A stretch of DNA of 61,939 nucleotides, filler included, from Fonticula-like sp. SCN 57-25 (Eukaryota), in the NCBI GenBank assembly GCA_001724245.1. It is 7 parts of 7 records of this genome, joined end to end, with 100 filler letters (N's around TTAATTAATTAA, not from the genome) between each part and the next. Parts side by side here need not be neighbours in the genome. Positions count along the whole stretch, not along the records: positions 35,524 to 44,286 come from MEDX01000290.1; 6 more parts are not named here. The stretch is one strand, 5' to 3'. The notes under the pieces are model-generated. The model saw only the letters and a list, made by a program, of their open reading frames with translations, searched no databases and had not been told where the DNA came from. The position numbers and the translations under genes were made by a program. Of this stretch, positions 2,025 to 50,200 are shown piece after piece. Numbering within the stretch: position 1 is the stretch's first letter; each line of letters begins with the position of its first letter.

Positions 2025-5000
2025 ATGTCGCCACGCGGGGACGAGGATGAGTTTGACGCTCATGAGAGCGTAAGCGAAAGCGAGTGGCAGGAGGATCAGG
2101 ATGAAAATGCTGATGACTATCTCGACGTGGAAGTACGTTGGCAACGGCGCATGGCAGCGGCATTACTGACATTTACCGCTAGACCGTGCAGCAAAAGGCG
2201 CTCAGCAAGCTTGACGTAGCGGGTCTGCTGGGCCCATTGTCCACCAACAACTACCCGTTGGTCGCGACTGCAATGTCTGACGGTACGTTTCTTTCCGCAC
2301 GTGTCACCGCGCGACGCTGACATGCGCCGCCGCCAGGATTCGCACTCTCCTCCACCTCTGACATCGAGAGCAGCACGTGGGCGCCCGTGCTCACCAAGAC
2401 AACTTCTCCTCCCACAAAGCTCGCCGTGTTTGATTCCGGGAAGCGCATCGCCGTCATGTCCGGCGCCAACGTCATCGACATCTACTCGATCGACGATGCC
2501 GATGCCGCATCCCCTTTCGCCACCAACCTCTTGCACACCGAGACATTCGAAAAGGACGTCACTGACCTTGTCGCTGTCCCCGGTGCGTCCTTTTTTGCCG
2601 TGCTTGCTGGAGGCATCGCGTACACGCTCTCTGCATCCAAGATGAAGAAGATGGAGCTGCAGGGCGCCAGCGACATCTCTGCCATCGCGTGCGCACTCGA
2701 CGGCAGCATTCTGTGCGGCACTTCAAATGGAAACATTTTGCGTTATTCCCAGCAAGGGTCGCTTCTTCAAAAGAACTCTATTCGAATTGGCCACAGTACG
2801 TGCGATCCTTTTTGGGCGCTTTTTCTTACTTTACCTTTCCAGTTCGCCACATTTCTTCTGGTAGTCCGCTGTCGACGGTGCTTATTATCTCAAACACAAT
2901 GACTGGCGATATCACGTGCAGCATCATTGACTTTACATCTGTACGCATTTACATATATTTTTACTTCTTTTTGCTGACACTTTCCAGTCTGCGCCGACCA
3001 TGCTGCTTTCCTGCCCGTCCCCATGCTTTGTCGACCAAGATCAGGCCGAGTCATGTGACTATTTCAGCACATATATCTCTTCAAGCACATCATGGGAATC
3101 GCTCTTTCTATTGGCTTGCTCAGTCGATTTCCAAGTCTACACTCTTGGCAAGACCAAAGAGGTCCGCTTTTCGCCCTTTTGAGTCCCTTTTTAATATGAA
3201 TTCTAATTTGTTATATATGTTTAGTCTGATCGCATGGCTATTTTTACCCTGCCTGAAGGCGCACGTATCACGTGCCCATATGGAGATGATGGCCCAACAT
3301 TCCCAGCAGGCATCGCAGTGACGTACGAGCAATATGAGCACGCCGTCATCCACGTGACCACATCGGGCGGCGCATACCTCACATTCAGGCTCATTGATAC
3401 CGTTTCCGAGAATGGCGAACTTTCAATTATTGCTCCTGAATTCTCATTGGCTGATGACGCAATCGGAGAAGAAGTGAACATTTCTGCTGAAATCGAAGCG
3501 TCAGAGGCGGCCGACAAAGCCAAGGAAGAGTCGGAAAAGGATGAAAAGAATACTGATGACGTCAAGGATGAAAAGACTGATGACGTCACTGAAGACAAGG
3601 ATGAGAAGACTGATGACGTCACTGAAGACAAGAAGGATGACGTCATTGAAGACAAGGATGTCAAGACTGATGCTGCTTCTGAAAAGCCAAAGGTGACGTC
3701 TGGTTTTGGTGACTTTATGGCCAAACAGAGTCAAGGCAAATGGAGTTGTACAGTGTGTATGTCACCAAATGATGACGCACTTCAAAAGTGTGCGTCATGT
3801 GAAGAAGACCGTCCCGGTGCAATCAAGACTGAAAAGAAGCCTGCATTTGGTGGTGGTCCCACTTTCCCTACTGCCCCTACCACGTCAGCATTTTCCTTTG
3901 GCGCACCTACTTCTACTCCTTCTTTTGGTGCACCTACTTCTACTTCTACTCCTTCTTTTGGATTTGGTGCACCTGCTAGTACTACTTCTACTACTACTAC
4001 TTCGGCCACTTCTGGATTCTCTTTTGGTGCAGTTCAGAATACCACTGCTACTGAAACGAAATCTGCCGAGAAAACTTCCGAAGAAACTCACAAGTCAGAC
4101 AAGTCAGACAAGACTGATAAGGCTGATAAGGCAGATAAGACTGAAGATGTGTCTGATAAGGCCAAGGTGACATCTGGCTTTGGTGACTTTATGGCAAAGC
4201 AGTCTCAGGGCAAGTGGACATGTTCCATGTGCATGTCACCAAATGATGACGCACTTCAAAAGTGCGCTTCATGTGAGGAAGATCGTCCGGGAGCGGTGAA
4301 GACCGAGACAAAGAAACCGACTTTTAGTGGTCCGACATTCCCAACTGCACCGACGACGTCATCATTTTCATTCGGTGCTCCAAGTGGAACTCCTACTTTT
4401 GGTTTTGGTGCACCTCCTTCTACTGGTGCATCTACTACTACTGCCACCTTTGGCTTTGGTGCACCTGCTTCTACTACTACTGCTGCTATCACTGAGACAA
4501 AGTCTGCTGATAAGCCTGTTGATAAGCCTTCTGATAAGCCTGCTCAATCAAGTGAGAAGTCAGACAAGACTGATGCTGCTTCTGATGCGTCTGAAAAGCC
4601 CAAGGCTGTTTCTGGTTTTAGTGACTTTATGGCCAAACAATCACAAGGCAAATGGAGTTGCACCACGTGTATGTCACCAAATGATGACGCACTTCAAAAG
4701 TGTGCATCGTGTGAAGCCGATCGTCCGGGTGCAGTCAAGACTGAAAATAAGCCAGTTTCAAGTGGCCCTACATTCCCTACTGCCCCAACAAAGTCTGCAT
4801 TCTCATTCGGTGCACCTCCAAGTGGCACTCCTTCATTTGGCTTTGGTGCACCTACTTCTACTACTTTTGGTGCACCTGCATCTACTACTGCACCTACAAG
4901 CACTGCATCAGAACCCAAGACTGATATTAAGTCTGATGTTAAGTCTGATACAAAGACTGATATTAAGTCCGATATTAAGACTGATATTAAGACTGATATC

Positions 5001-8000
5001 AAGTCTAATACTTCTTCTGCCACTACGACACCCGTTTTTGGCGCCCCTTCTGCTATTGGCGCCGCCTCTGCCTTTGGCACCGCTTCCTCAATTGGCTCGC
5101 CTTCCGCCTTTGACCGCCCTTCAGGCACATCTGCATTTGGCCAAAATGCCACTTTTGGTTCTGCTTTTGGCGGGAATGCCACTTTTGGCTCTGCTTTTGG
5201 TTCTGCTGCGCAACAATCGACTGGTTTTGGCTTTTTTAAGGGGTCGGAAGGAAAGGAAGGTTGGATGGGAAGTGAGGCGAATGAGGAGCCAAAGGTGTCA
5301 TTTGCGGCGCCAAAGTCGGCGTTTGGTACGCCAGTAAAGTCTGCTACACCGGTGACGTCAGCATTTGGTACTCCTGTAAAGTCTGCTTTCGGCACACCTT
5401 CTTCTTCTTCTTCTACTACTGCGCCTACTACTGCTGCTGAGAACACTGTAAAGTCTGCTTTTGGTGCACCTACTACGTCATCATTTACTGCACCTACTAC
5501 GTCATCATCTACAAGTGGCTTTTTCAAGACTGGCGATAATAAAACTTCATCTGCCTTTTCAGGTGGCTTTGGCGCTGTTTTGTCTGGCGCCAATTCCGGA
5601 ACTGGTTTTGGCTTTTCAAGCAGTTCTGGCTCCTCATTGGCTGCGACACTTGCAGCCGGTTCAGCACCGACATCTGCATTTGGATCTGCTGACGGAAAGC
5701 CAGTGTCAGCATTTGGTGCACCGGTGGCGTCCAAGCCATTTGGTGTTATTCAGCAGTCACGTGCTGATGATGAAAGTGGGGATGAAAGTGGGGATGAACA
5801 TGGTAAAGATGATGAAAATGATGTGCAAAGTGGGTTTGATGATGATGAAGATTTTGATGACGAGTTGGGCGATGAAGATGACTTTGATGACTATGATTCG
5901 CAAGAAGAAGAAGAAGAGGAAAAGTCGTTTGGCCAATCGGAAGAAGAAGAAGAAAAAGTGAAAGAAAAGGAGGCTAAAGATGAGCCTGCAAGGCCCAATT
6001 TGCGCGGTGTTGCGTCACCGAATGCAAAGCCGACGGTCGTTTCGTCGTTTTCAAAGCCGTTTGCGTATGAGCCGAGTGCTCCGCCGCCCACTTTTGAGTC
6101 AAAGTTGCCGTCGGGTGGGACATTTAACTTTAACTTTTCGCTTGACGATGGTGAAGACAAGTCTGAAGTTAAGCCTGAGATTAAGACTGAAGTTAAGCCT
6201 GAAGTCAAGCCTGAAGTCAAGCCTGAAGTCAAGCCAGAAGTTAAGCCTGAAGTTAAGTCTGAAATCAAGACCGAGAATAAGCCTGAAGTCAAGACTGAAG
6301 TTAAGACTGAGGCGCCCAAGGCTGAAGTGCCCAAGACTGAAATTAAGACTGATGCGACCAAGCCCGCTGATGTAAAGGCAGATGCGCCCAAGCCTTCCGC
6401 TCCTTCTACTGGCTTTGGCTTTGGTGCTCCTTCTTCTGGCTTTGGTGCTCCTTCTACTGGTTTCGGTGCACCTGCATCTGGCTTTGGTGCTCCTACCTCT
6501 GGATTTGGTGCACCTTCCACTGCTCCTTCCACCGGATTTGGCGCTCCTTCTACTAGCAGTACTGCTCCTTCCACTGGCACTATTGCCCCTGCTGCCTCTG
6601 GTTTCGGTGCTCCATCAACTGGCTTCGGTACTCCTTCTACTGGATTTGGTGCTCCTTCTACCGGTTTCGGTGCACCTTCTACTGCTGGTAGTGCTCCATC
6701 AACTGGATTTGGTGCACCTTCTATTGCACCTTCTACTGGATTTGGCGCTCCTACTGTTGCCCCTTCTACTGGATTTGGTGCTCCTTCCACTGCCTTTGGT
6801 GCCAAGCCACCTGCCTTTGGATCTCCTTCCCCATTGGCCACTGCCTCACCCGCTGCTCCTATTCCTGCCACGTCATCAGCAAAGCCACCCGCTTCCACTT
6901 TTGCTCCTTCTGGCTCAAGTTCAACTGTTGCTGCTGGCAAACCTCAAGGTGAATTGCCGGCACTCTTTCACGCAGTGGCATCGCCTGTTGAGCCAATCAA
7001 ACAAGAGATTAAGCCTATTCAGCCAATCAAACAAGAGGTCAAGTCTGTTGAGCCAATCAAGCAAGAGCCTGCAGTTGTTCAGCCAATCAAGCAAGAGGCG
7101 CCCAAACCGCCGACTGTTCCTATCAAGCAAGAGACAAAGCCAGTTGCTGTTCAGCCAATCAAACAAGAGATTAAGCCTGTTCAGCCAATCAAGCAAGAGC
7201 CGATCAAGGCAGTTCAGCCAATCAAGCAGGAAAAGTCTGCCCCGGAATCTGCTTCTTCTTCCACGCAATTTTCGCGCCTTTCCCCGTCGCTCAACGAGGT
7301 ACAATTTATTTCTCTTTGTTGTTTTATATGCTGACAAATGTCTATTTTTAGCTTGCGAATCGCGCGTCGTCTATTCGTGCTCGTCTTGATAAGCTTGGCG
7401 AAAACAGTTTCAAGAGCGAAATTGATTCACTTTCGGCGTCGGTCAAGGAAAAGCGCGCTGCATTGACCGATGTAAAGTCAAAGACAAAGTCATCTTCTGA
7501 CGGCCTCATTGACCGTACGACACGTATTGTTTTTAATATCAAAACTAAATATGATTTTTCAGTTGCTGCGATGACTGCCGAGACGTCGTGTTATCTTTCG
7601 GCGCAGCAGAATGCTGACCGTTATCCGAATATGATTTCAAAGGCAAAGTTGGGTCCTGAAGCGCAGCTGTTGAAGGATGAGCTTGAGGCGAGCTTCCAGG
7701 TGTGTTTTGATTGGTGGATGAAAAAAAAGGTCTAACGTGATTGGATGTAGAATGCGTATCAGAGGTTGACAAAGACAGAGCAGGCGATTAATATCGCTGC
7801 CAATCGCCAAGTGACGCCTCCCACATGGGCAAAGTACGTTGCTTATTGTATATGATTGTTGATTTTGTTGTCATTTTTTGTCATTTTGTTACACTTTTAT
7901 TACTTTGTGTTGACATTACGTTACCTTTTTGTTACTTTTTGTCGCATTTTCTTGCAATATCTTTACTAATTTTGCACTTTATAGGGCCCCCCAATTGAAG

Positions 8001-35523: not shown

Positions 35524-35569
35524 AGTGTTAGCTCAGAGGGTGCGTTTGCTACAACTCTATTGTCTGCAG

Positions 35570-36785
35570 CTTACATCTTGAAGGTCCGAGCGGGTCGTAT
35601 GCAGAGGCCGTCGCGTACCTCAAGGGTTTGTGCGAGACGCTAGGTCTCGAGACGCAGGTTCATGAGTTTTCCGCTGGTCGACCGGTGCTGGTTGCGCTGT
35701 GGCGCGGCCGCTCTGACAACCTTGGTCGTGTACTACTTCACAGCCATTACGATGTTGTCCCTGCCTTTCCTGCGAGCTGGGCGTCCGATCCGTTTGTCCC
35801 CGTCGTAAAAGATGGTCGAATCTATGCACGCGGAACGCAGGACATGAAGTGTGTTTCCATGCAGTATATCGAGGCGATTGCAGCCATTCAGCGCGCGAAT
35901 GCAACGAACGTGTCCCCCTTTGAGCGCACCATTGCGTTGTCGTTTACACCGGATGAAGAAGTGGGCGGCGTGGAGGGCGCGGGGTTGTTTGTTGCTTCTC
36001 CCGCTTTTCAAGAACTCCGAGCCGCGGTGGGTCTGGACGAGGGGCTTGCAAACCCAGAGGACGCCTTTACTGTGTTTTATGGGGAGAGGGCGCCTTGGTG
36101 GGTCACTGTGCGGGCGAATGGAGCGACCGGCCACGGCAGCAGATTCATTGCCGGCACTGCCGTCGAGAAGCTGCTAAAGTTCATCAATGCCGCCATGGCG
36201 TTCCGTGCCGAGCAAGAGGCGCGTCTACACGCTGACAAAGGTTGTTCTCACGCGGCCCGCTTGGGAGACGTGGTCACGGTGAATCTCACTATGCTTAAGG
36301 CGGGCGTGGCCGGCTCCCCGGCCATGGGCGGATACGCGCTGAACGTGATCCCCGAAGAGGCGTACGCGGGCTTTGATATTCGAATCCCCCCGAGCGTTCC
36401 TATGGACGAAATGCAGTCTATTATTGAGACGTGGCGCGGAGGCGACGATAGCATCGAGGTTTTATTCAACGTACGTGTTCCGGAGCACTGCGTCACAAAC
36501 ATTGAACCTGTGGCCAGTGGCGGCACGCCGTGGTGGCCGCCGCTTCTTGATGCAATTTCCAATGCTGGTGAGATAAAGGTCGTCACGGAGGTGTTCCCTG
36601 CGGCGACCGATGGGCGGTTCTTTAGAAAGGCCAAAGTCCCAGTCTTTGGGTTCAGTCCCATTCGCAACACGCCCATCCTCCTTCACGACCACAACGAGTT
36701 CCTCCCCGTGGACGTCTTCATGCAAGGTATTGAGGTGTACACGCGTGTCCTGAAGTCGCTCGCGAGCAACGTTGAACTGCCATGA
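35570..36785 (+). CDS. ACY1: Aminoacylase-1 (M20 metallopeptidase family); first exon missing
   Basis: LHSHYDVVP, YARGTQDMK, PDEEVGG, LDEGLA, FPAATDGRF and LLHDHNE motifs; begins after a CTGCAG acceptor. Confidence 0.93.
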
Positions 36786-36952
36786 GTCTGTTCGAGGGTG
36801 TTATTTCTTTAGCTTGTATTGCCAAAGGGCTGTGAATCGAATTGCGACCACAGTTACCATACTAAATACTACAGATTCCATACTGAACTGATACTTAAAT
36901 GATCCAATGCACTGTCATTTAATTTCCTTGACTCAAATGGCCTTGCGATTCG

Positions 36953-38251
36953 CTAAACAAACGTATTGAACCAAGTAGGGACACTCTCAACTGCTTCAGC
37001 GATCCACTCGTGTGTGCAGTTGGCGCAGTAAATAATGGTATTCGTAATGTTTTGCTTGGTGAGCGCGGCAGCATAGTCCTCCATCGTGTATGGGGGCACA
37101 ATATAGTCCTTCTCCCCGTGCAAAAACAGAGTCGGAGGGTGGTCGTCAGGCAGCTCGGGGGTTACGCAAATCGGCCCGACGCAGGTCGCGTACGCACCGG
37201 AATGCACGGCCAATGCCTTGAAGCGGCCGCGATAGCTGACCGCCATGCGTGAAGTCATGTACCCACCGGACGAAATGCCCGTTGCGTACAGGCGGTCGCT
37301 GTTGAGCGGACCAAACACGCCGTCCGGCCCATCAATCTGCTCGAGCAACCACTTGACATAGTAGTGGTCCGGTGCAATGTCCCACCAGAGGCTGAACGGA
37401 GGCACATTCGTGTTCCAGAACAGGAACCCAGTCAAGTGACTTTCGGGCGTCAGCACAGCAAACCCTCCATCCAGCAGCGACTTGATAGTTTCCGTCTGGA
37501 AGTAGGCCCCAAAGGGATAGCCACGCCGAGCGCGCCACGAAAACAGATGAGGCGCAAAGAAGGAGCCATGGTAGTGAATCGCTGTAGGCCACCCGCTCTC
37601 AGGAACCGCACCAAGAGGCGTCTGCCACAAATAAGTGCGGTATGAAATTCCAATGAACACACTGCCCTCATTGCGCTCGCAGTCGATAATGTTGCCGTCG
37701 TCTTCATAGGAGCAGCGCGACTCGGTTTCGTTGTTGGTAGACGAGAAGCCCCGCAAACGAGAAACAAAATTGGTGGCTGACGGAAGACGACCTGCGTCAA
37801 CTACCATAAGCACTCCAACAGGAATAGAGACGCCGTCGCTATAATGGGCAGTGGGAAGACAAGCGGCGTCAAAGGGAAGGGCCCTGGGGAAAGCCAAGTG
37901 AAGCGAATACACTGCGCTCAGCCATTGAAACTCGAGTGCCCCAGCAAAGTCCTCATCCTGACCCACGGCCGCCGCCGCATCATCAAAGCGTGTCATTTCG
38001 GCCTCCTCAAGTTCGGCAAGAAATTCGCCCAGGTAGGCCGACAGACCGTCCACCTTGAAGAGATTCGTGGACGCGTCCTCCCAAGCGAGGCATCCTAATG
38101 CCTTTGGGCCCGCTGCACGCACAGCATTAGCGGCTTCGTGCTCGAACGGTCCTTTGCAAAACACGTCAGAGCCTTCACTTTCCACTTTGCAAAGAGCATT
38201 GCTTGCCGCCACCAGAGCGAGAAGCACAGCGAGGAAGGGTAGCTTGGTCAT
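36953..38251 (-). CDS. Secreted alpha/beta-hydrolase homologous to bacterial extracellular mcl-PHA depolymerase (PhaZ), with an extra N-terminal domain
   Basis: Signal peptide; QTPLG...GWP, HGSFF, FWNTN, FGPLN, YATGISSGGYMTSRMAVS (lipase box), SGAYATCVGPICV, HPPTLFLHG..D and HEW. Confidence 0.8.
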   Translation of the reverse strand: MTKLPFLAVLLALVAASNALCKVESEGSDVFCKGPFEHEAANAVRAAGPKALGCLAWEDASTNLFKVDGLSAYLGEFLAELEEAEMTRFDDAAAAVGQDEDFAGALEFQWLSAVYSLHLAFPRALPFDAACLPTAHYSDGVSIPVGVLMVVDAGRLPSATNFVSRLRGFSSTNNETESRCSYEDDGNIIDCERNEGSVFIGISYRTYLWQTPLGAVPESGWPTAIHYHGSFFAPHLFSWRARRGYPFGAYFQTETIKSLLDGGFAVLTPESHLTGFLFWNTNVPPFSLWWDIAPDHYYVKWLLEQIDGPDGVFGPLNSDRLYATGISSGGYMTSRMAVSYRGRFKALAVHSGAYATCVGPICVTPELPDDHPPTLFLHGEKDYIVPPYTMEDYAAALTKQNITNTIIYCANCTHEWIAEAVESVPTWFNTFV

Positions 38252-38689
38252 GGTCGAGGGTGCCTTTCGTCTAGGCAGCGTCTCGGCAGCGTCTCCTTGT
38301 TACCCCCGTACTTTTACTACTGATACCCATCAAACCGGTTTTGATGACCATCAAGGGCCGACCGACCATCATAGCTGCGGGTATGTGTGATGTCTAATAA
38401 TTGTAATACCATTCGCATGCGTGTGACCACCATCATTCAAGCCACTGCGGTGTTGAGTACGGGGCCATAAATAATATCCTCTAATTATTTATTCGCATGC
38501 CATGGATAATGGAATGTGCGCTATAATTCCAGGCTGAACGTACATGTCCAAACAGATATCGGCTATCTAATGTCCCAACACACAATAATATACTCGTCAA
38601 GGCACATAGCCCAAAAACAAGGAAAACAGAGTAACTAAAAAGGAGGCCGAGGATGCAGCAAACAAAGTACATCCAGCCGCGGTTCTAAA

Positions 38690-41600
38690 CTAACGAATGG
38701 ATTGCGAGGACGAGCTGGCACCATTCAATGGGGGAGGAACCGGGATGGGCGACGTCAGTGGTGGCGGAACCCCAGCGCGGTTGGTCATTGACCGGGGATC
38801 CACAGCGCGAGTGTTCAGCGGCGGAGGAGCCCCGCCAAGCGGCGAGGGAATACCGGCCAGCGGCGCAGGAATTCCAGCATAGGTCGGGGGCGGCGGAAGT
38901 CCAGTGGAAGGGGCCCGCGACAAGGGAAGAGGAACTCCTGGCCGCGCGGACGACGTCGTCGGCGATTGCATCGAAGGTTCAACCGAGAGCAGGTTGGAGT
39001 GCACGGTTTGAGCCGTCATACGAATGTCCATACGGGCGATTGTGCAGCCGTTGATGAGATTGACAAACATCGAGCGGATGTCGTCAGGGACTGTCGGAGG
39101 CGGCGTTTCCATAAAGAAGTGCGCGCAGGTGGCAGTCTCAATCTCGTCGTCGCTTGCATCGCCCCACGGAATCATGCGCATGTACAGCTCCCAGAGGACC
39201 ACGCCAAGCGCAAACATATCGGCGGCGCGGTCATCGATGCCGGTTGCAGGAATCCCAGGGTGGCGATAGCGAATAATGAGCTCAGGCGAAGCATAGCGGA
39301 TGTCGAGCTTTGAAACCGTCTTGTTCGGGGTGGGGTCCGAATCACCCCGCGCATCATGGAAGTCCGCGATGACAGGCACAGGGTAAGGCGAGAGGGACGA
39401 TGTTGCGTTCAGCAGGATGTTGGTGGACTTGATGCCGCGGTGGGCAATGTTCATGCTATGAATCGCATGAAGGCCAGCCGCCACGCCGGAACCAAGGAAG
39501 TGCAGCAACGGTGACTCGAGCGGCGGTGCCTTCTCTCCCTTGTGCAGGTAGCGATGGAGATTGATGGGGTACGAGCGCACGATGATGGTGCGCGGCTCCA
39601 GTGTGTAGCCAGCGAGGGCAACAATGTTCTGATGGAACGAAAGAGACCACATCAGATCGAGCTCGCGCAGGAACACCTCGCCGTTCTCCTCATCACTCAG
39701 AGCAGGGTTCGCCTCAAGCTCCTCGACCACGACGTCGGTGTAGCCGACGCGATCCACAATACGCTGGGCCAACAAGCGACCGCGAGAGAGGGAGCCTCGG
39801 CCGTGGCGAGCAGCGATAAGGGAGCCGACCTGGAGATCCGACGAGAAATCGCACTGGAGGTAGGGCGCAAGGCCGGCACCGGCCGACTTGACAGGCTTGC
39901 TTGTCTCCTCGCTGCTGCCGACAGACATCTGCGACATGGTAAACGACGGATTCGAGTCCCCAAGAAGCATGGTGCGGCTACGCTCCTCGCGATAAGCGCG
40001 CATCGCCTGCAGACCAGTCTCGCCTCCGAAGCGCTCAAACTTTTCCTTCGTTTTGCTCTTCTGCCGACGAATCAAAATAATCACAATCACGACGAGGATG
40101 AGAGCAAACACGACGGCGCCAGCACTTGCGCCAGCGATAATGGTGCCGCTAACGCCAAGACCAGGATCTGATACACGAGTAAGTTACCGAACCACACAGT
40201 TCAAGAGCAAAAACATACCGGTGGCCTCATGGCTGGATGCAACTGTAGACATCTGGGTACGAGATCCGGTGCTTTCTGTCGTATTTCCAAGGCCGGCCAA
40301 AACGAGCACCACGTAGCTGACGCCGGGTTCGAGATTCTCGATGGTAGCAATGCCTTCAGAAGCCGGCACATCGCCACTGATAATAAACCCATCCGATGCG
40401 TCGCGGACATCGTTACTCGACACGTAGCAGATTCGATAAAACTCTGCCTCAGCAGACGCTGTCCAGCTAAAGGAAAGGGAGGAATTGGTCGCCCCCTCAA
40501 GACGCAGAGCTCCCGGCGGAGAAATCTCAGTCTTGGCCGAAATAGTCATTGAAGCGAGGTCACTGTACGTATCTTCCAGGCCAGCGGTGACGCGGAACGA
40601 ATACTGCGAGTTGGGCGAGAGGCCAACAACCACATACTCGGGGGAAAGCAAATTAATTCCTCCACCGGTATTGGCCACCTGGAAGGCGGAAACGGCCGTA
40701 CCCACCTCGACCCTGTAGGAGGTTTCGTTGGTGACATTGTGCGACTGCCACATAAGCTTCACCGAGTTGGACGTGCGAGAAGCAACGGCCAAGTCGTAAA
40801 CCAAGCCGCCACTTTCCACGGGGAGGAGAGTGCACGGGTTCTCAAAGGAAGCCTCCCACTCGCCAGTAGCGGTGCACGTGCGCATCGGCGGGCCAGACTC
40901 TGAAACTTCATAGCCTGTTGGACACGTGCCAACGGAAACCATTCCAGGGGCAGTGGAGGGGAAATAGGTCATTCCGAGAGTCTCGCTGGGGCAGTTATCA
41001 TACTTGATCTGGCAAGGGTTCTCGATAGTGCTGTTCCAGGCGCCGTTCAACTGGCAGACTCGAACAGGAGTACCTGCGTAGCCCGAGACGCAGCTGCCGA
41101 CCGCAACAAGACCCGCTCCCGTCGCATTCCAGTTTGCGTTTCCATCCACACTCTGCGGACAGTATAGCACATCGCAGTTGTTTTGGATTTGGCCCCAGTT
41201 GCCAGAGGCGTCACAGGCTCGAGATGGGGTGCCAAAGAAGCCAGCCATACACTCGCCCGCAATGTTTGGCAGATTCGCATCCGCCGCAGGCCAGTCGGCA
41301 TTGCCGTCCTGAACAGCGGGGCACACAAGACGAACGCAGGGATTAATAATCCCCTCCCAATTGCCGTTAATGTCGCAAAGGCGAGAAGGGCTGCCCGCAA
41401 AGCCGACTTCACAGGTGGCAGCGGCAAGGCGCCCGGCTTCGGTGGTGGGCCAGGCGGGATTCCCCACGCCGGAAACCTGTCCGGCGCAGGTACGGGGGAC
41501 GCAAGGGTTCTCGATGGCGCTCCATGTGCCTGAGACCGTACATTGACGCAACGGTTCGCCGGTAAACCCAGGCGGGCATGTTCCAGCAACGAGACTGCTG

Positions 41601-44286
41601 CTCGGGGTTCCGGAAGGCCAATCGCCGTCGGCGTCGCTCAGGGCAGGACACACCGCTTGGACGCAAGGGTTGCGAACTTCAGAGAATGTACCAAACTCGG
41701 AACAGTTGCGTCTCGGCGAACCATGCCAGCCGGATGCGCACACGCCTGCAACATCGTTGGTCATGGACAAAGCAGATGGCCATTCCGCATTCTCAAAAGT
41801 CACCGCAGCACAGACAAGGCGATCGCAAGAACCAGTAACCTCGCTCCAAATTCCCTGCGCGGTGCATGAACGAGTAGGGGCCGTCTCTCCTCCGTATCCC
41901 GTAAGGCAGCGCCCAACAGCGACGGAGCCGGCGTTGATACCCGTCCATTCAATGTTGTTCTCAGTAACAGCGTCGCACACGATCTCCTCGCAGGTACCCT
42001 GAACAGCGCCCCAGAGACCATCCATAGAGCACACGCGGGTAACCGTTCCATAGTAGTTGGCGTGGCACGATCCCGTAACAGCAGCCCCGGCAGTTGTGCG
42101 CGGCCACGAAGACGTCGACTCGGTCACGGCGGAGCATTCCACAATAGTGCACGGATCCTGGATGGTACCCCATTCGCCAGTAATACTGCAGGCGCGCACA
42201 GGATCGCCTCGGTAGCCGGTCATGCACGAGCCGCCAGCAGTGGAGCCGGCCGTCATGCTTGGCCACGAAGCGTGGCCATCTTCGTCAATTGACGGGCACC
42301 AAATTTGTTCACAGGCAGGCTCCGGCACCGACCACACCAATTCGTAGGAGCATGAGCGAGAGGGTGATCCTTGATAACCAGCCACGCAGGTTCCTGAAAC
42401 GGAGGAACCAGACTGGAGGCTACTTGGCCACGTTGAGAAAAAGGAGCCATAGCTGGGAGACGCGTCGGTGCAGTGTGTCGGCAGACAGGGATCCGCAATA
42501 TCCGAGCCCCAGCGACCCGAGTCGTCACAGAGACGGGACGGGGTACTAGCGGATGCGAATCCTGTGACACACGTGCCGAAAACAGTAACATTTGACGTTT
42601 CCGGCATCTCCCAATCCGCATTGTGGTCATCAAAGAGGGCAGCGCAAGGGAGCGAGCTGCACGCGTTGTTCACGGCCGACCACGTGCCGTTCGCCGAGCA
42701 GCTGCGAGTGGGGAAGCCAGAGGTCTCCGGGTCGCACACGCCCGCTACCGCCGCCGTTCCAGCTTTCACCGACACCCACGAGGCCTTTGCAGCCGCGTCG
42801 TACGAAGCAGGGCAGTAGAGCTGGACGCACGAGCCTGAAATGCCCCCCCACGCTCCGTTGAGTCCACAGGAGCGGGTGGGAGTGCCGGACAAGCCTGCGT
42901 TGCAAGAGCCTGCTACGACAGTCGATCCAGCATTAGATGCGGGCCAAGACGCAAGCTGCTCAACAGTGGCAGGGCACTTGATCTGGGTGCACGTATTGAC
43001 GATCGCGCCGAAAACGCCGTCCGCATTGCAAGAGCGGGTGGGAGCACCAGAAAAGCCCGGAATACACTGTCCCGCTACTGATTCGAGCGAGTTCGTCTGC
43101 GCCCAGACAGCATTTCCTTCGGTGGTGCCGCTGCAGATGTTTCGAGTGCACACGGCGGTAAGAGAGCCCCACTCACCGGAAAGCAGGCACGAGCGCTTAG
43201 CGGGACCGGAATAGCCAGCAGTGCAGGTACCGTTAACGTCAGCGGTGCCGGCGGTAGCAACCGGCCAATTGGCCTGGTCAAGAAAACCAGCTGCACAGAC
43301 GACCTGCACACAGGGGCGGGACGTGGTCGACGCCCACGTTCCGCTCTCGCTGCACGCCCGCGTGGGACTTCCGCTGTAGCCGGCGACGCAGGTGCCCGTC
43401 GCGATGGTGTTGGAGGGTGTTAGGGCCGGCCACGAGGCGTTCTCAAATGAATCGGCCGGACAATAATTGCGCGTGCATGGCGAAGAGACCTCGGGCGACC
43501 AAGAACCGTAAATTTCGCAGCTGCGGGTTGGATTCCCCGAGTAGCCGGAGCGGCAAACACCCGTGGCAACCAAGCCAGCAACAGTCAAAGGCCAATCGGC
43601 GTTGGAATATTCGGTTTGCGCAGGACAAGAGAGCTGCATGCATTCGCCAACAATCGACAGCGCCCAAGACCCGGAGGCACTACACGTTCGCTGAGGATTG
43701 CCGGAATATCCCGCAAAGCAGGTGCCCATTGCAGTTGAAAATGCAGGCGTAGACGGCCAATCCACGTTGTTCATGACGTCCTCCATAGGCGCGCAAACAT
43801 TCTGCGTGCAAGGTGACGTCACAGGACCCCACGTGCCGGACAAGGTGCAGTCAGACTTTGGCGAACCAGAGTAGCCAGCGACACATGTGCCAGAGGCAGT
43901 AGTTTGGCTGTTGACTTGGGGGAAGCTAGCCGTGCCAATCGTAGTTGCCGGGCAAGTAATCCGAGTGCAGGGGTTGGTGACCTCTGACCATACGCCCAAA
44001 TCGCTGCAGGTACGCCGAGGTCCGCTCGACTTGTAACCCGACAAACAAACGCCATCGGCCGAGGTCCCAGCATTCGTCAAGGGGAATGATGCAAAGCCCG
44101 CGCTCGCGTCGGCGGGACAAGTTCTCTCTGAAACAAACGTTAGGAAGACGTCGTGCAGGGCCAAGGAAAACGCACTGGTGCATTGATTCTGAACTGCACC
44201 CCACACCCGGTTCGTGCACAACGATTTCGGCGCTCCTTGGAACGTTGGCAAGCAAGTTCCCGTGGCCGTGACGCCGCTGTTCGTAA
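38690..44286 (-). CDS. Single-pass receptor-like pseudokinase: >=20 HormR/sushi-like Cys repeats, 2 FN3, TM, TKL-like kinase fold, Pro-rich tail; 5' truncated
   Basis: ORFs 40184-44251 and 38690-40111 join via intron 40168-40218; in-frame intron at 44128-44175. Repeat consensus C-x-WP-x-T-x-G-x-C-xx-GY-x-G-x-P-x-R-x-C-xxx-G-x-W-x-C. Kinase motifs are HRGIKSTNIL, ADFH and RYASPEL. Confidence 0.85.
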
Positions 44287-47233: not shown

Positions 47234-50200
47234 ATGGCGCAGAAGCTTCCCATCAAGCTGCAGGACCACCTGCAGCTTACGAACGTGGGAATCAATGCGG
47301 CCAACATTGGTTTCAACACGCTCACCATGGAGTCTGACCGCTTCATCTGCGTTCGCGAAAAGGTCGGCGAGGAGAACCAGGTCGTCATTATCGACATGGC
47401 CGACCCCACGCACCCGCAGCGCCGCCCCATCAAGGCCGACTCGGCTATGATGAACCCCGTCTCAAAGATCATTGCGCTCCGCGGTGCGTCTTTTTGTTTT
47501 TTTGCCCCCTTGTCGGCCCGAGTCTTACCTCGGTCCCCGTTTCTCTAGCCGAGGGTCGCCAGCTCCAAATTTTCAACCTCGAGCTCAAGAGCAAGATGAA
47601 GGCGTTTACCATGCCCGAGGAGGTTGTGTTCTGGCGCTGGATTAGCCTCAACACCATCGGTCTCGTCACTGAGACTGCCGTCTACCACTGGAAGATGGAG
47701 GGTGACTCGCAGCCGACCAAGGTCTTTGACCGCCTCCCCAACCTCGCTGGCTGCCAGATCATCAACTACCGTGTCAGCAGCGACGAGAAGTGGCTTCTCC
47801 TTACCGGCATCTCGATGCAGAATGCCCGCGTTGTCGGCGCCATGCAGCTGTACTCGATCGAGCGCGGCGTCAGCCAGCCCATCGAGGGTCACGCCGGTGC
47901 CTTCACCGAGCTCACCGTTGAGGGCAGCTCGACGCCCGTCAAGCTCTTCTGCTTTGCCGTCCGCCCCGCCAGCGGCGCCGCGCCCAAGCTCCACGTTATC
48001 GAGATCGGCACCCAGGCCCCGACCTTTGCCAAGAAGGCCGTCGACGTGCCGTTCCCGGCCGAGGCCGCCGCCGACTTCCCGATCTCCATGCAGATCTCGA
48101 AGAAGTACAACATTGCGTACATTGTCACCAAGTACGGCTACGTGTACCTGTACGACGTCGAGACCGCCGAGCTCCTCTATGTGAACCGCATCTCGGCCGA
48201 CACCATCTTCATCACGACCGACTACGAGCCGACCTCGGGCCTCATCGGTATTACCCGCAAGGGCCAGGTCCTCTCGGTCAGCATCGACGAGGCCAACTTT
48301 GTGCCGTACATTATCCAGACGATGCAGAAGCCCGACCTCGGCATTCGCCTCGCCATCCGCTGCGGCCTCTCGGGCGCCGACGACTTTTTCCTCCAAAAGT
48401 TCCAGCAGTTCTTCCAGGCCGGCAACTTTGCCGATGCCGCCAAGATTGCGGCCAGCTCGCCCAAGGGCATCCTGCGTACCCCGCAGACCGTCGAGCGCTT
48501 CAAGCAGGCCCAGCTCCCGGCCGGCACCCCGTCGCCGCTCCTCCAGTACTTTGGCATCCTCCTCGAGAAGGGCCAGCTGAACAAGTACGAGTCGCTCGAG
48601 CTCGCTCGCCCCGTCCTCCAGCAGGGCAAGAAGCAGCTGCTCGAAAAGTGGCTCAAGGAGGAGAAGCTCGAGTGCAGCGAGGAGCTCGGTGACATTGTCC
48701 GCCAGCAGGACCTCCCGCTCGCCCTCTCGGTGTACCTCCGCGCCAACGTCCCGAACAAGGTCATTGCCTGCTTCGCGGACCTCGGCCAGTTCCCCAAGAT
48801 CATCCTCTACGCCAAGAAGGTCAACTTCCAGCCCGACTACCAGTTCCTTCTCTCGACCATCATGCGCATGAACGCCGAGAAGGGTGTCGAGTTTGCCAAC
48901 CTGCTCGTCCAGGACGAGTCCGGCCCGCTGCTCGACCTCGAGGCCATCGTCGACGTCTTTGTGTCGCTCAACCTCATCCAGCAGGCGACCGCTTTCCTCC
49001 TCGACGCGCTCAAGGGCAACCTCGAGTCCCAGGGCCACCTCCAGACCCGCCTCCTCGAGATGAACCTGATGCACTTCCCGCAGGTCGCTGATGCCATCCT
49101 CGGCAACGAGATGTTCACCTACTATGACCGCCCCCATATTGCGCAGCTCTGCGAGAAGGCTGGTCTCTTCCAGCGCGCGCTCGAGCACTACACCGACGTG
49201 TACGACATCAAGCGCACCATCGTGCACACCCACCTCCTCAACCCCGAGTGGATCGTCGGCTACTTTGGCCGCCTCTCGGTCGAGAACGGCATTGAGTGCC
49301 TCCGCGAGATGCTCAAGGTGAACATCCGCCAGAACCTCCAGATTGTCGTCCAGGTCGCGATCAAGTACGCCGAGCAGATGACGCCGGCCGCCCTGATCGA
49401 GCTCTTTGAGTCGGTCAAGAGCTACGAGGGTCTCTACTACTTCCTCGGCGCCATCGTCAACTTTTCGCAGGAGCCCGAGGTGCACTTCAAGTACATCCAG
49501 GCCGCCACCCGCACCGGCCAGCTCAAGGAGGTCGAGCGCATTGTGCGCGAGTCCAACTGCTACGACCCCGAGGCCGTCAAGAACTTCCTCAAGGAGTCCA
49601 AGCTCACTGACCAGCTCCCGCTCATCATCGTCTGCGACCGCTTTGACTTTGTGCACGAGCTCGTCCTCTACCTGTACCGCAACCAGCTGATGAAGTACAT
49701 TGAGATCTACGTCCAGAAGGTCAACCCGAGCCGCACCCCGGTCGTCCTCGGCGCCCTCCTCGACGTTGACTGCGAGGAGTCGGTGGTCAAGAACCTCCTC
49801 CTCTCGGTCAAGGCCAACATCCCCGTCGAGGCCCTCGTCGCCGAGATTGAGAAGCGCAACCGCCTCAAGCTCCTCGCCCCGTGGCTCGAGGCCCGCGCCC
49901 AGGAGGGTTCGCAGGACCCCGCCGTGCACAACGCCCTCGCCAAGGTGTACATTGACTCCAACACCAACCCCGAGGCGTTCCTCCGCGAGAACCCCTACTA
50001 CGACAGCCTCGTGGTCGGCAAGTACTGCGAGAAGCGCGACCCCTACATGGCCGTCATCGCCTACGAGCGCGGCCGCTGCGACTATGAGCTTATTGACGTC
50101 ACCAACGAGAACTCGCTCTTCAAGCAGCAGGCTCGCTACCTCGTCAAGCGTCGCGACCACGACCTCTGGATGCACGTCCTCGACCCCGAGAACAAGTTCC

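Follow-up and report, generated by a model that had tools for sequence, protein, structure and literature searches.

The gene and its product

The DNA analysed here, a 61,939-nucleotide (nt) stretch from Fonticula-like sp. SCN 57-25 (GCA_001724245.1) that we call the window, carries in its MEDX01000290.1 part (positions 35,524 to 44,286; all coordinates count along the whole window) a minus-strand gene whose product matches the extracellular depolymerases of bacteria for polyhydroxyalkanoate of medium chain length (mcl-PHA). The gene is one unbroken open reading frame (ORF) that starts at the first ATG past the upstream stop codon (Table 1). The identical 432-amino-acid (aa) protein is recorded from three contigs, the longest of 25.5 kb, and a near-identical protein, P0122, is found on a 15-kb contig.

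Residues 2-24 of the product are its only strongly hydrophobic region and give the sole Kyte-Doolittle peak (1.9); judged by eye, residues 1-19, which close on the small-residue end S-N-A, form a putative signal peptide with cleavage after A19. The protein has ten Cys residues and three N-x-S/T sequons (N174, N401 and N411). A preliminary description, made from the sequence alone, had called the gene intronless in the company of intron-bearing genes and had credited its product with a signal peptide, N-glycosylation sequons, an extra Cys-containing N-terminal domain, a series of PhaZ motifs, an intact Ser-Asp-His triad and homology to mcl-PHA depolymerases; all of these were borne out, with the particulars given here and below. 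An ATTAAA hexamer lies at 36918-36923 (-), about 30 nt past the stop codon in an AT-richer spacer, and by analogy with animal signals may be a polyadenylation signal.

Table 1. Coordinates of the depolymerase-like gene, its parts and other features of the window
Feature	Position	Strand	Basis or remark
Whole gene	36953..38251	(-)	432 codons plus stop, intron unnecessary; ORF reading
Signal-peptide-like start, residues 1-19, MTKLPFLAVLLALVAASNA	38195..38251	(-)	hydrophobicity; same start in all four orthologues
Orphan N-terminal domain, residues 20-177	37721..38194	(-)	orthologue alignment, profile searches
N-x-S/T sequon N174-E-T at domain junction	37724..37732	(-)	kept in 6 of 6 distinct clade members
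Catalytic alpha/beta-hydrolase domain (e_dPHAmcl), residues 178-432 (255 aa)	36956..37720	(-)	NF050057 match; model confidence (pLDDT)
Lipase box G325-I-S-S-G329, putative nucleophile Ser327	37265..37279	(-)	S327, S328 and G329 invariant in 120 sequences
Asp382 codon, putative triad acid	37106..37108	(-)	invariant in 120 sequences
His414 codon, putative triad base within HEW	37010..37012	(-)	invariant in 120 sequences
M20 peptidase, convergent neighbour	35628..36785	(+)	ends 168 nt from the gene's stop codon
Protein kinase with Pro-rich tail, same-strand upstream neighbour, eukaryotic	38690..40111	(-)	domain matches
Intron in clathrin heavy-chain gene	47484..47548	(+)	65 nt, GT..AG; read by eye

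The catalytic domain

Residues 187-430 align with positions 12-250 of the 252 in the NCBIfam equivalog model NF050057 (e_dPHAmcl, extracellular mcl-PHA depolymerase, EC 3.1.1.76) at 276.6 bits (E 1.6e-82), against a curated cut-off of 270 bits. The match far exceeds what chance would give and supports membership of the window protein in this family. The five other members of its clade (see below) that were scanned score 276.6-303.9, all six clade members scanned pass the cut-off, and four bacterial proteins score 329-361.

The PhaZ motifs are found at residues 209-214 (WQTPLG), 220-222 (GWP), 229-232 (GSFF), 313-317 (FGPLN), 323-331 (ATGISSGGY), 334-339 (SRMAVS), 351-362 (SGAYATCVGPIC), 371-379 (HPPTLFLHG) and 414-416 (HEW). 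Across 120 aligned homologues S327, S328, G329, D382, H414, C357 and C362 never vary, and C180 and C191 hardly ever do; S327, D382 and H414 stand in register with the homologues as the probable catalytic triad. The Cys residues make two pairs, C180/C191 and C357/C362, and AlphaFold2, whose model of residues 181-432 has 10-residue block means of pLDDT (a predicted score for the local distance difference test) between 85 and 98, predicts both on beta-hairpins. Two residues ahead of His414 there is a further C-A-N-C pair (residues 409-412; 37016-37027, (-)), which is unique to the window protein, overlaps the sequon N411-C-T and is replaced by D-P-x-A-G in the orthologues; a metal site or an additional disulfide next to the active site is conceivable here.

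Less specific resources place the domain more broadly. Foldseek with the catalytic domain returned generic alpha/beta hydrolases only, the nearest solved folds including PETase, lipases and feruloyl esterases; a sequence search of the PDB found no related solved structure (best E 0.0047); and Pfam gave general alpha/beta-hydrolase signals only. Four other assignments were rejected. PF10503 (Esterase_PHB) scores 13.6 bits against a cut-off of 23, and two short-chain-length (scl) models, type-2 NF050059 and NF050058, score 19.3 against 280 and 50.8 against 150, respectively. Prolyl oligopeptidase S9 (PF00326), Pfam's top signal for the window protein, passes its cut-off at 38.7 bits, but its best stretch covers only residues 371-420 (model positions 144-192 of 213), and the match is to the common C-terminal structure of alpha/beta hydrolases.

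The N-terminal domain

The catalytic domain is preceded by 158 residues (20-177) that are acidic (pI 4.4), Ala-rich and mostly helical. Four Cys residues, C21, C32, C54 and C131, and about 20 other positions are invariant in the four two-domain lineages described below; identity between orthologues is 31-35% in this domain, as against up to 59% in the catalytic one. A word-based search with residues 20-177 matched only the window protein itself. A profile of the domain run against 1.84 billion representatives found five proteins, four of them from its own clade; the fifth, an 817-aa repeat protein matched in nine stretches, was set aside as spurious. Up to an E of 10 Pfam assigned the window's domain to no family, and among the domains of the other three orthologues it gave two weak single-member matches (E 0.031 and 0.062). 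A PDB profile search gave a single match at E 1.2, an Atlas search no usable match, and Foldseek with a model of the domain nothing better than E 0.74. In VIA-align the top rows were mostly alpha chains of N-terminal nucleophile (Ntn) hydrolases, with Z of at most 5.2, which is in the tool's chance range for helical models; the Ntn-hydrolase alpha-subunit fold (that of acid ceramidase, PvdQ and penicillin acylase), for which 5.2 is the best Z and sequence gives no support, is kept as a lead only. In the full-length model the domain has pLDDT 35-67. Five models of it folded alone range from 46 to 79, the best (78.6) being helical with two small hairpins, and their disagreement leaves the fold uncertain.

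The domain is regarded as an orphan, for which a pro-domain, a granule anchor and a sorting signal are candidate roles. PMC2666664 describes mcl-PHA depolymerases as having no separate substrate-binding domain, so the two-domain architecture appears to be new for the family. Three bacterial loci (L024, L061 and L075) align with the window protein from residues 129-149 on, that is, in the linker ahead of the catalytic domain, and this was taken as low-complexity Ala-rich similarity.

Relatives and phylogeny

A homologue search gave 974 hits among 8000 candidates scored, and the best 120 were examined. Only three of these reach the N-terminal domain: P0002 (437 aa), P0004 (458 aa) and P0003, which is represented at full length by P0124 (439 aa) of its cluster. 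The two-domain lineages are 44-47% identical overall, which indicates that the gene is old within its group. P0005 and P0006 have the catalytic-domain features specific to this clade and different N-terminal extensions; hhalign found no similarity between the window's N-terminal domain and P0005 (probability 0.1), in line with extensions of another kind in these two proteins. The remaining rows match the catalytic domain only, at 43-56% identity. Organism names are attached to 13 of the 120 rows: 12 of these belong to Myxococcota, and the other is a transcriptome ORF from Phalansterium solitarium (Amoebozoa). The latter (P0021, from EukProt) has 288 aa, a signal-peptide-like start, two sequons and an NF050057 score of 318.6 bits, and may be either a second eukaryotic carrier or bacterial carry-over.

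A prokaryote search with one genome per species found 213 relatives, of which the best 79 loci were retained. Going by their record titles, 58 belong to Myxococcota, 11 to Pseudomonadota (for the most part bins with loose labels) and 3 to Actinomycetota, and 7 are without a phylum; none of the 79 extends into the N-terminal domain of the window protein. The family model found members in 21 of 301 sampled genomes in the phylum of Minicystis rosea, 19 of them above the cut-off, and in 1 of 301 in the phylum of a Microthrixaceae bin, namely the centre genome itself. Further members in the latter phylum had been sought as an outgroup; as there were none, the tree is unrooted and the donor unproven. 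Viral contigs gave 18 pattern matches and no relatives. Apart from the clade of the window protein, the family thus sampled appears to be found almost only in bacteria.

An unrooted tree of 88 rows was built with IQ-TREE (supports are ultrafast bootstrap and SH-like approximate likelihood ratio test, SH-aLRT), leaving out L080 (frameshifted), L082 (a spurious 26-residue match) and L083 (which coincides with L050). The window protein groups with P0002, P0004, P0124 and L081, the last belonging to the P0124 lineage, at 100/98, and these five with P0005 and P0006 in a seven-row clade at 100/96. The clade has a long stem (0.21-0.25) and sits in an open polytomy among Myxococcota lineages, its sister group not being resolved. 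Near the active site its members read HYHGSF where nearly all others have FQGS, and they have two small insertions; in an alignment of 11 sequences, 67 invariant columns are common to the clade and the Myxococcota homologues. The position of the two-domain group within a Myxococcota-dominated radiation makes horizontal acquisition from bacteria, which the preliminary description had proposed, well supported, and a Myxococcota-like donor is our best guess. That description had also named clustering with widespread, vertically inherited eukaryotic esterases as the outcome to look for against transfer, and no such clustering was seen in the best 120 of the 974 hits.

An old eukaryotic esterase family, inherited vertically (for example, from the ancestor of opisthokonts and Amoebozoa) and lost nearly everywhere, could also account for the seven-row clade. 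The age of the two-domain lineages agrees with this, and a tree constrained to join the Phalansterium transcript to the clade exceeds the free tree by 5.1 log-likelihood units and is not rejected (approximately unbiased test, p-AU 0.62), but that grouping was named after the tree had been seen and joins long branches, which attract one another. The Phalansterium sequence, perhaps itself bacterial carry-over, is moreover the single eukaryote among the organism-named rows, and the clade lies inside the bacterial radiation rather than beside it. We regard vertical descent as improbable.

Orthologue contigs, junction sequon and selection

Contig L081 (GC about 70%) has at its end an orthologue all but identical to P0124. 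The MnmE gene of this contig has an Arg-rich N-terminal extension, read as a putative mitochondrial presequence, and an N-terminal domain that occupies two frames, joinable over a GT..AG span of 85 nt; its TruD gene is spread over three frames. From these features L081 appears to come from a second, different eukaryote. Another contig, L080, carries at 1146-2603 a two-domain gene of the P0124 lineage with a frameshift near 1931-1950, which is either an assembly error or the mark of a decayed copy.

All six distinct members of the seven-row clade have an N-x-S/T sequon right before the S-R-C that starts the catalytic domain, as against none of the 53 bacterial loci in which the motif could be located (25 of 78 loci were unscorable). 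This clade-only sequon fits a route through the secretory pathway of a eukaryote, and suggests a eukaryotic source for P0005 and P0006 too.

Within the gene, contigs of other sequencing runs show 20 sites at which they depart from the window. In the catalytic half eight of nine differences are synonymous (a fraction of 0.235 is expected for random changes), in codons 1-177 four of 11. The catalytic part is therefore strongly constrained, by purifying selection, and the N-terminal part far less so, which agrees with the lower identity between orthologues in the N-terminal domain.

These counts bear on the idea that the gene is a decaying, non-functional relic of a transfer. The frameshifted copy on L080 would suit a relic, as would the fact that the 22 runs listed for the stretch include no RNA run. 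Against it stand the open 432-codon frame, the intact triad and Cys pairs, the excess of synonymous variants in the catalytic half and intact orthologues in three other lineages, and we give it very little credence.

Genomic setting

The depolymerase gene lies between an M20 peptidase gene, aminoacylase-like by reading of its translation, and a eukaryotic protein kinase gene 438 nt upstream. Directly upstream of the kinase frame, and on the same strand, is an ectodomain frame at 40184-44251 (-) with HRM, Sushi, Ephrin-CRD and fn3 matches. Besides this HRM/Sushi/fn3 receptor, the eukaryotic genes of the window encode clathrin heavy chain, DENN, G-patch, Sec61 alpha (SecY) and ankyrin proteins, a PRMT fragment and Bin3, and such genes are found to both sides of the depolymerase gene. 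Exon 1 of the clathrin gene starts at 47234 and is joined by its intron (Table 1) to a long open frame, so the window carries spliced genes. The GC content at third codon positions (GC3) of the depolymerase gene is 0.63, as against 0.645 for the M20 gene, 0.63 for the receptor and 0.70 for the kinase; in six bacterial homologues it is 0.84-0.99. Residence of the gene in a eukaryotic genome is well supported. Among the clathrin matches listed, those covering most of the query are 64-70% identical, and the named ones come from chytrids, Capsaspora, Mortierella-like fungi and animals, which indicates that the host is probably an opisthokont distant from all named species.

The same locus was recovered from other sequencing runs. 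In run X1, labelled a bioreactor metagenome (X4 is labelled a wastewater metagenome), one 5114-nt contig covers the 4.8-kb stretch from the M20 gene through the depolymerase gene to the kinase gene. Three runs of other studies give 35 short contigs that lie, at comparably low depth, over the gene and part of each neighbour; some of them cross from spacer into gene. None continues into dissimilar sequence, and neither joints nor loose ends are reported, which argues against a chimera, each of these independent contigs bridging less than the three genes. Coverage, which the preliminary description had put forward as a check, was in these three runs similar over the gene and the covered parts of its neighbours.

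These data largely refute bacterial contamination or a chimeric contig, that is, a myxobacterial gene joined to eukaryotic DNA by the assembler, for which we see next to no chance. The window does come from an assembly of metagenome type, bacteria are the nearest relatives that have names, and X1, the source of the only contig that spans all three genes, is possibly the window's own source run. The gene nevertheless has the GC3 of its neighbours and not of its bacterial homologues, a eukaryotic gene flanks it at 168 nt on one side and at 438 nt on the other, and the contigs of three other studies cross the spacers into it. The junction sequon sets the clade apart from the bacterial loci, four bacterial proteins that were read have short Ala/Asp/Glu-rich N-terminal stretches in place of the Cys domain, and an orthologue is present on the second, intron-bearing contig L081.

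Comparison with known enzymes

The window protein has in common with bacterial extracellular mcl-PHA depolymerases the NF050057 match, a G-I-S-S-G box, given in PMC11893044 as the lipase box of these enzymes, the triad, the two Cys pairs and a predicted secretion signal. Its likeness to the first of them to be studied, the poly(3-hydroxyoctanoate) depolymerase of Pseudomonas fluorescens GK13, is by way of the family model and the quoted lipase box only. It differs from the bacterial enzymes in its eukaryotic host, the added 158-aa domain, the N-glycosylation sequons, the HYHGSF sequence and the small insertions, and its score is near the bottom of the NF050057 family range. The nearest named relatives, in Chondromyces crocatus, C. 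apiculatus, Nannocystis and Polyangium (all Myxococcota), are 47-53% identical in the catalytic domain; two Chondromyces proteins, P0049 and P0074, are named extracellular mcl-PHA depolymerase by NCBI. These homologues are 286-344 aa long and have a hydrophobic start, and none covers the window's N-terminal domain. In P0049 the hydrophobic start ends in a Cys, read as a lipoprotein signal, and is followed by an Ala/Asp/Glu-rich stretch.

A functional analogy for the use of such an enzyme by a predator, drawn from its description, is PhaZBd (Bd3709) of Bdellovibrio bacteriovorus, an extracellular-like enzyme that according to PMC4834554 degrades the mcl-PHA of the prey during predation; it differs in being a bacterial enzyme that works inside the invaded prey cell. 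A table in the review PMC11893044 includes dithiothreitol (DTT) among the inhibitors of PhaZBd, which we take to fit essential disulfides like those that the conserved Cys pairs of the window protein may form.

Zeidler et al. 2026 (PMC13642032) report PHA depolymerases in animals and protists, which put them to use on the storage polyester of microbes. Their enzymes are described there as related to the Penicillium funiculosum type (PDB 2D81), with carriers among fungi, protists and animals, and the authors favour a line of descent that leads from protist ancestors to animals. The biology proposed here is no different, a depolymerase secreted by microbe-feeding eukaryotes, but the family is an unrelated, short-chain one, and the window gene looks recently bacterial, unlike the argued protist descent of theirs. 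The main text of PMC13642032 does not contain "mcl" or "medium-chain", and two of its supplement files contain none of Fonticula, Nuclearia, Phalansterium, Parvularia, medium-chain or octanoate. PMC13101487 (2026) gives Myxococcota, Proteobacteria, Actinobacteriota and Bdellovibrionota as the only groups from which candidate extracellular mcl-PHA depolymerases are known, and a literature search, outside which most subscription journals lay, brought up no description of an mcl-family enzyme in a eukaryote. The biology was therefore anticipated by the 2026 scl-type work, and what is new is the family in a eukaryote, the domain architecture and the host.

Origin and function

The explanation that we favour, and consider reasonably probable, is a eukaryotic gene that descends from a bacterial mcl-PHA depolymerase and whose product digests the PHA of prey. 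The host would be an uncultured opisthokont-like protist in which the gene is intact, and the catalytic domain would have come from a bacterial extracellular mcl-PHA depolymerase of a Myxococcota-like donor. After transfer the gene would have acquired a host-like composition, a eukaryotic signal peptide and a conserved N-glycosylation site, a lineage-specific, disulfide-bonded helical N-terminal domain would have been added, and several related lineages would later have inherited the result. The product would enter the secretory pathway and be released or sent to the food vacuole. Ser327, activated by His414 and Asp382, would cleave the ester bonds of an aliphatic polyester, the likeliest substrate being the mcl-PHA granules of ingested or nearby bacteria, and the hydroxyalkanoate monomers or dimers so formed would pass to beta-oxidation. 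By analogy with PhaZBd a digestive role is plausible. The preliminary description had offered much the same interpretation, a bacterivorous protist digesting the polyester granules of its prey with a horizontally acquired enzyme and with Bdellovibrio as precedent. Its family, triad, eukaryotic residence, bacterial ancestry and precedent have held, and its mcl-PHA substrate, bacterivory and site of action are, as before, inferred.

Several observations weigh against this proposal. The margin over the NF050057 cut-off is just 6.6 bits, and the window protein scores below all four bacterial proteins scanned and below all 20 above-cut-off matches (19 genomes) in the Myxococcota-phylum sample; so small a margin would allow a shift of substrate, and together with it the clade's own changes near the active site weaken certainty about the substrate. 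The literature yielded no assay of clade members or of close Myxococcota relatives. PMC11893044 gives pH optima of 8-10 for the characterised bacterial enzymes, a poor fit with an acid food vacuole unless the enzyme has adapted. The clathrin gene places the host no more closely than near the opisthokonts, its bacterivory is a presumption, and with the sister group open the donor is a best guess. To these are added the better score of the tree joining Phalansterium to the clade, which leaves some room for a single older eukaryotic origin, the dependence on X1 for a three-gene contig and the absence of an RNA run, all discussed above.

An alternative is that an enzyme of the same origin and fold has become a general secreted esterase, acting on some other aliphatic polyester or lipid ester, such as cutin, suberin, triacylglycerol, bacterial lipids or man-made polyesters. 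The score barely above the cut-off, the long stem of the clade with its HYHGSF sequence (FQGS in nearly all others) and two small insertions, an added domain that has no assigned role, the PETase, lipases and feruloyl esterases among the Foldseek neighbours, and the promiscuity between lipases and PHA depolymerases stressed in PMC13101487 all agree with such a shift. Equivalog models are, however, built to separate function, and all six clade members scanned pass this one; the family's G-I-S-S-G box and both Cys pairs are retained, and the catalytic half is strongly constrained. We consider this shift unlikely, although it is the alternative to digestion of prey PHA that deserves the most attention.

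A bolder form of the favoured explanation, which we put forward only tentatively, would make the window gene the first known of a line of mcl-type PHA depolymerases in eukaryotes. These enzymes would have come long ago from predatory bacteria resembling myxobacteria and been passed down through a group of uncultured opisthokont protists, with a possible relative in Amoebozoa, and they would carry a new disulfide-bonded helical module that either fixes the enzyme to polyester granules or holds it inactive on its way to the food vacuole.

Few mcl-PHA degraders are known, and a eukaryotic enzyme of this type would widen the range of organisms that return this carbon store to the food web and would offer a new scaffold for bioplastic recycling. 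If the proposal is true, the gene would be a clean case of a predator's tool that moved from bacteria to a protist and there gained a signal peptide, a site for a glycan and a further, new domain, and its product a naturally glycosylated eukaryotic enzyme for the breakdown of mcl bioplastics. Alongside the scl-type enzymes described in 2026, it would mean that the storage polyesters of bacteria are within the reach of protists in both their classes.

Other features of the window

A 1366-aa open frame at 3234-7334 (+), in the first 12 kb or so, stands apart from the other genes of the window. Its GC3 is 0.36, its relative synonymous codon usage (RSCU) has a correlation of 0.06 with that of the other genes (theirs being 0.5-0.87), and its sole Pfam signal is a weak RanBP-type zinc ribbon. 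GC content is 0.47-0.52 in intervals within 1-12 kb and 52-58 kb, and 0.54-0.64 in most of those between.

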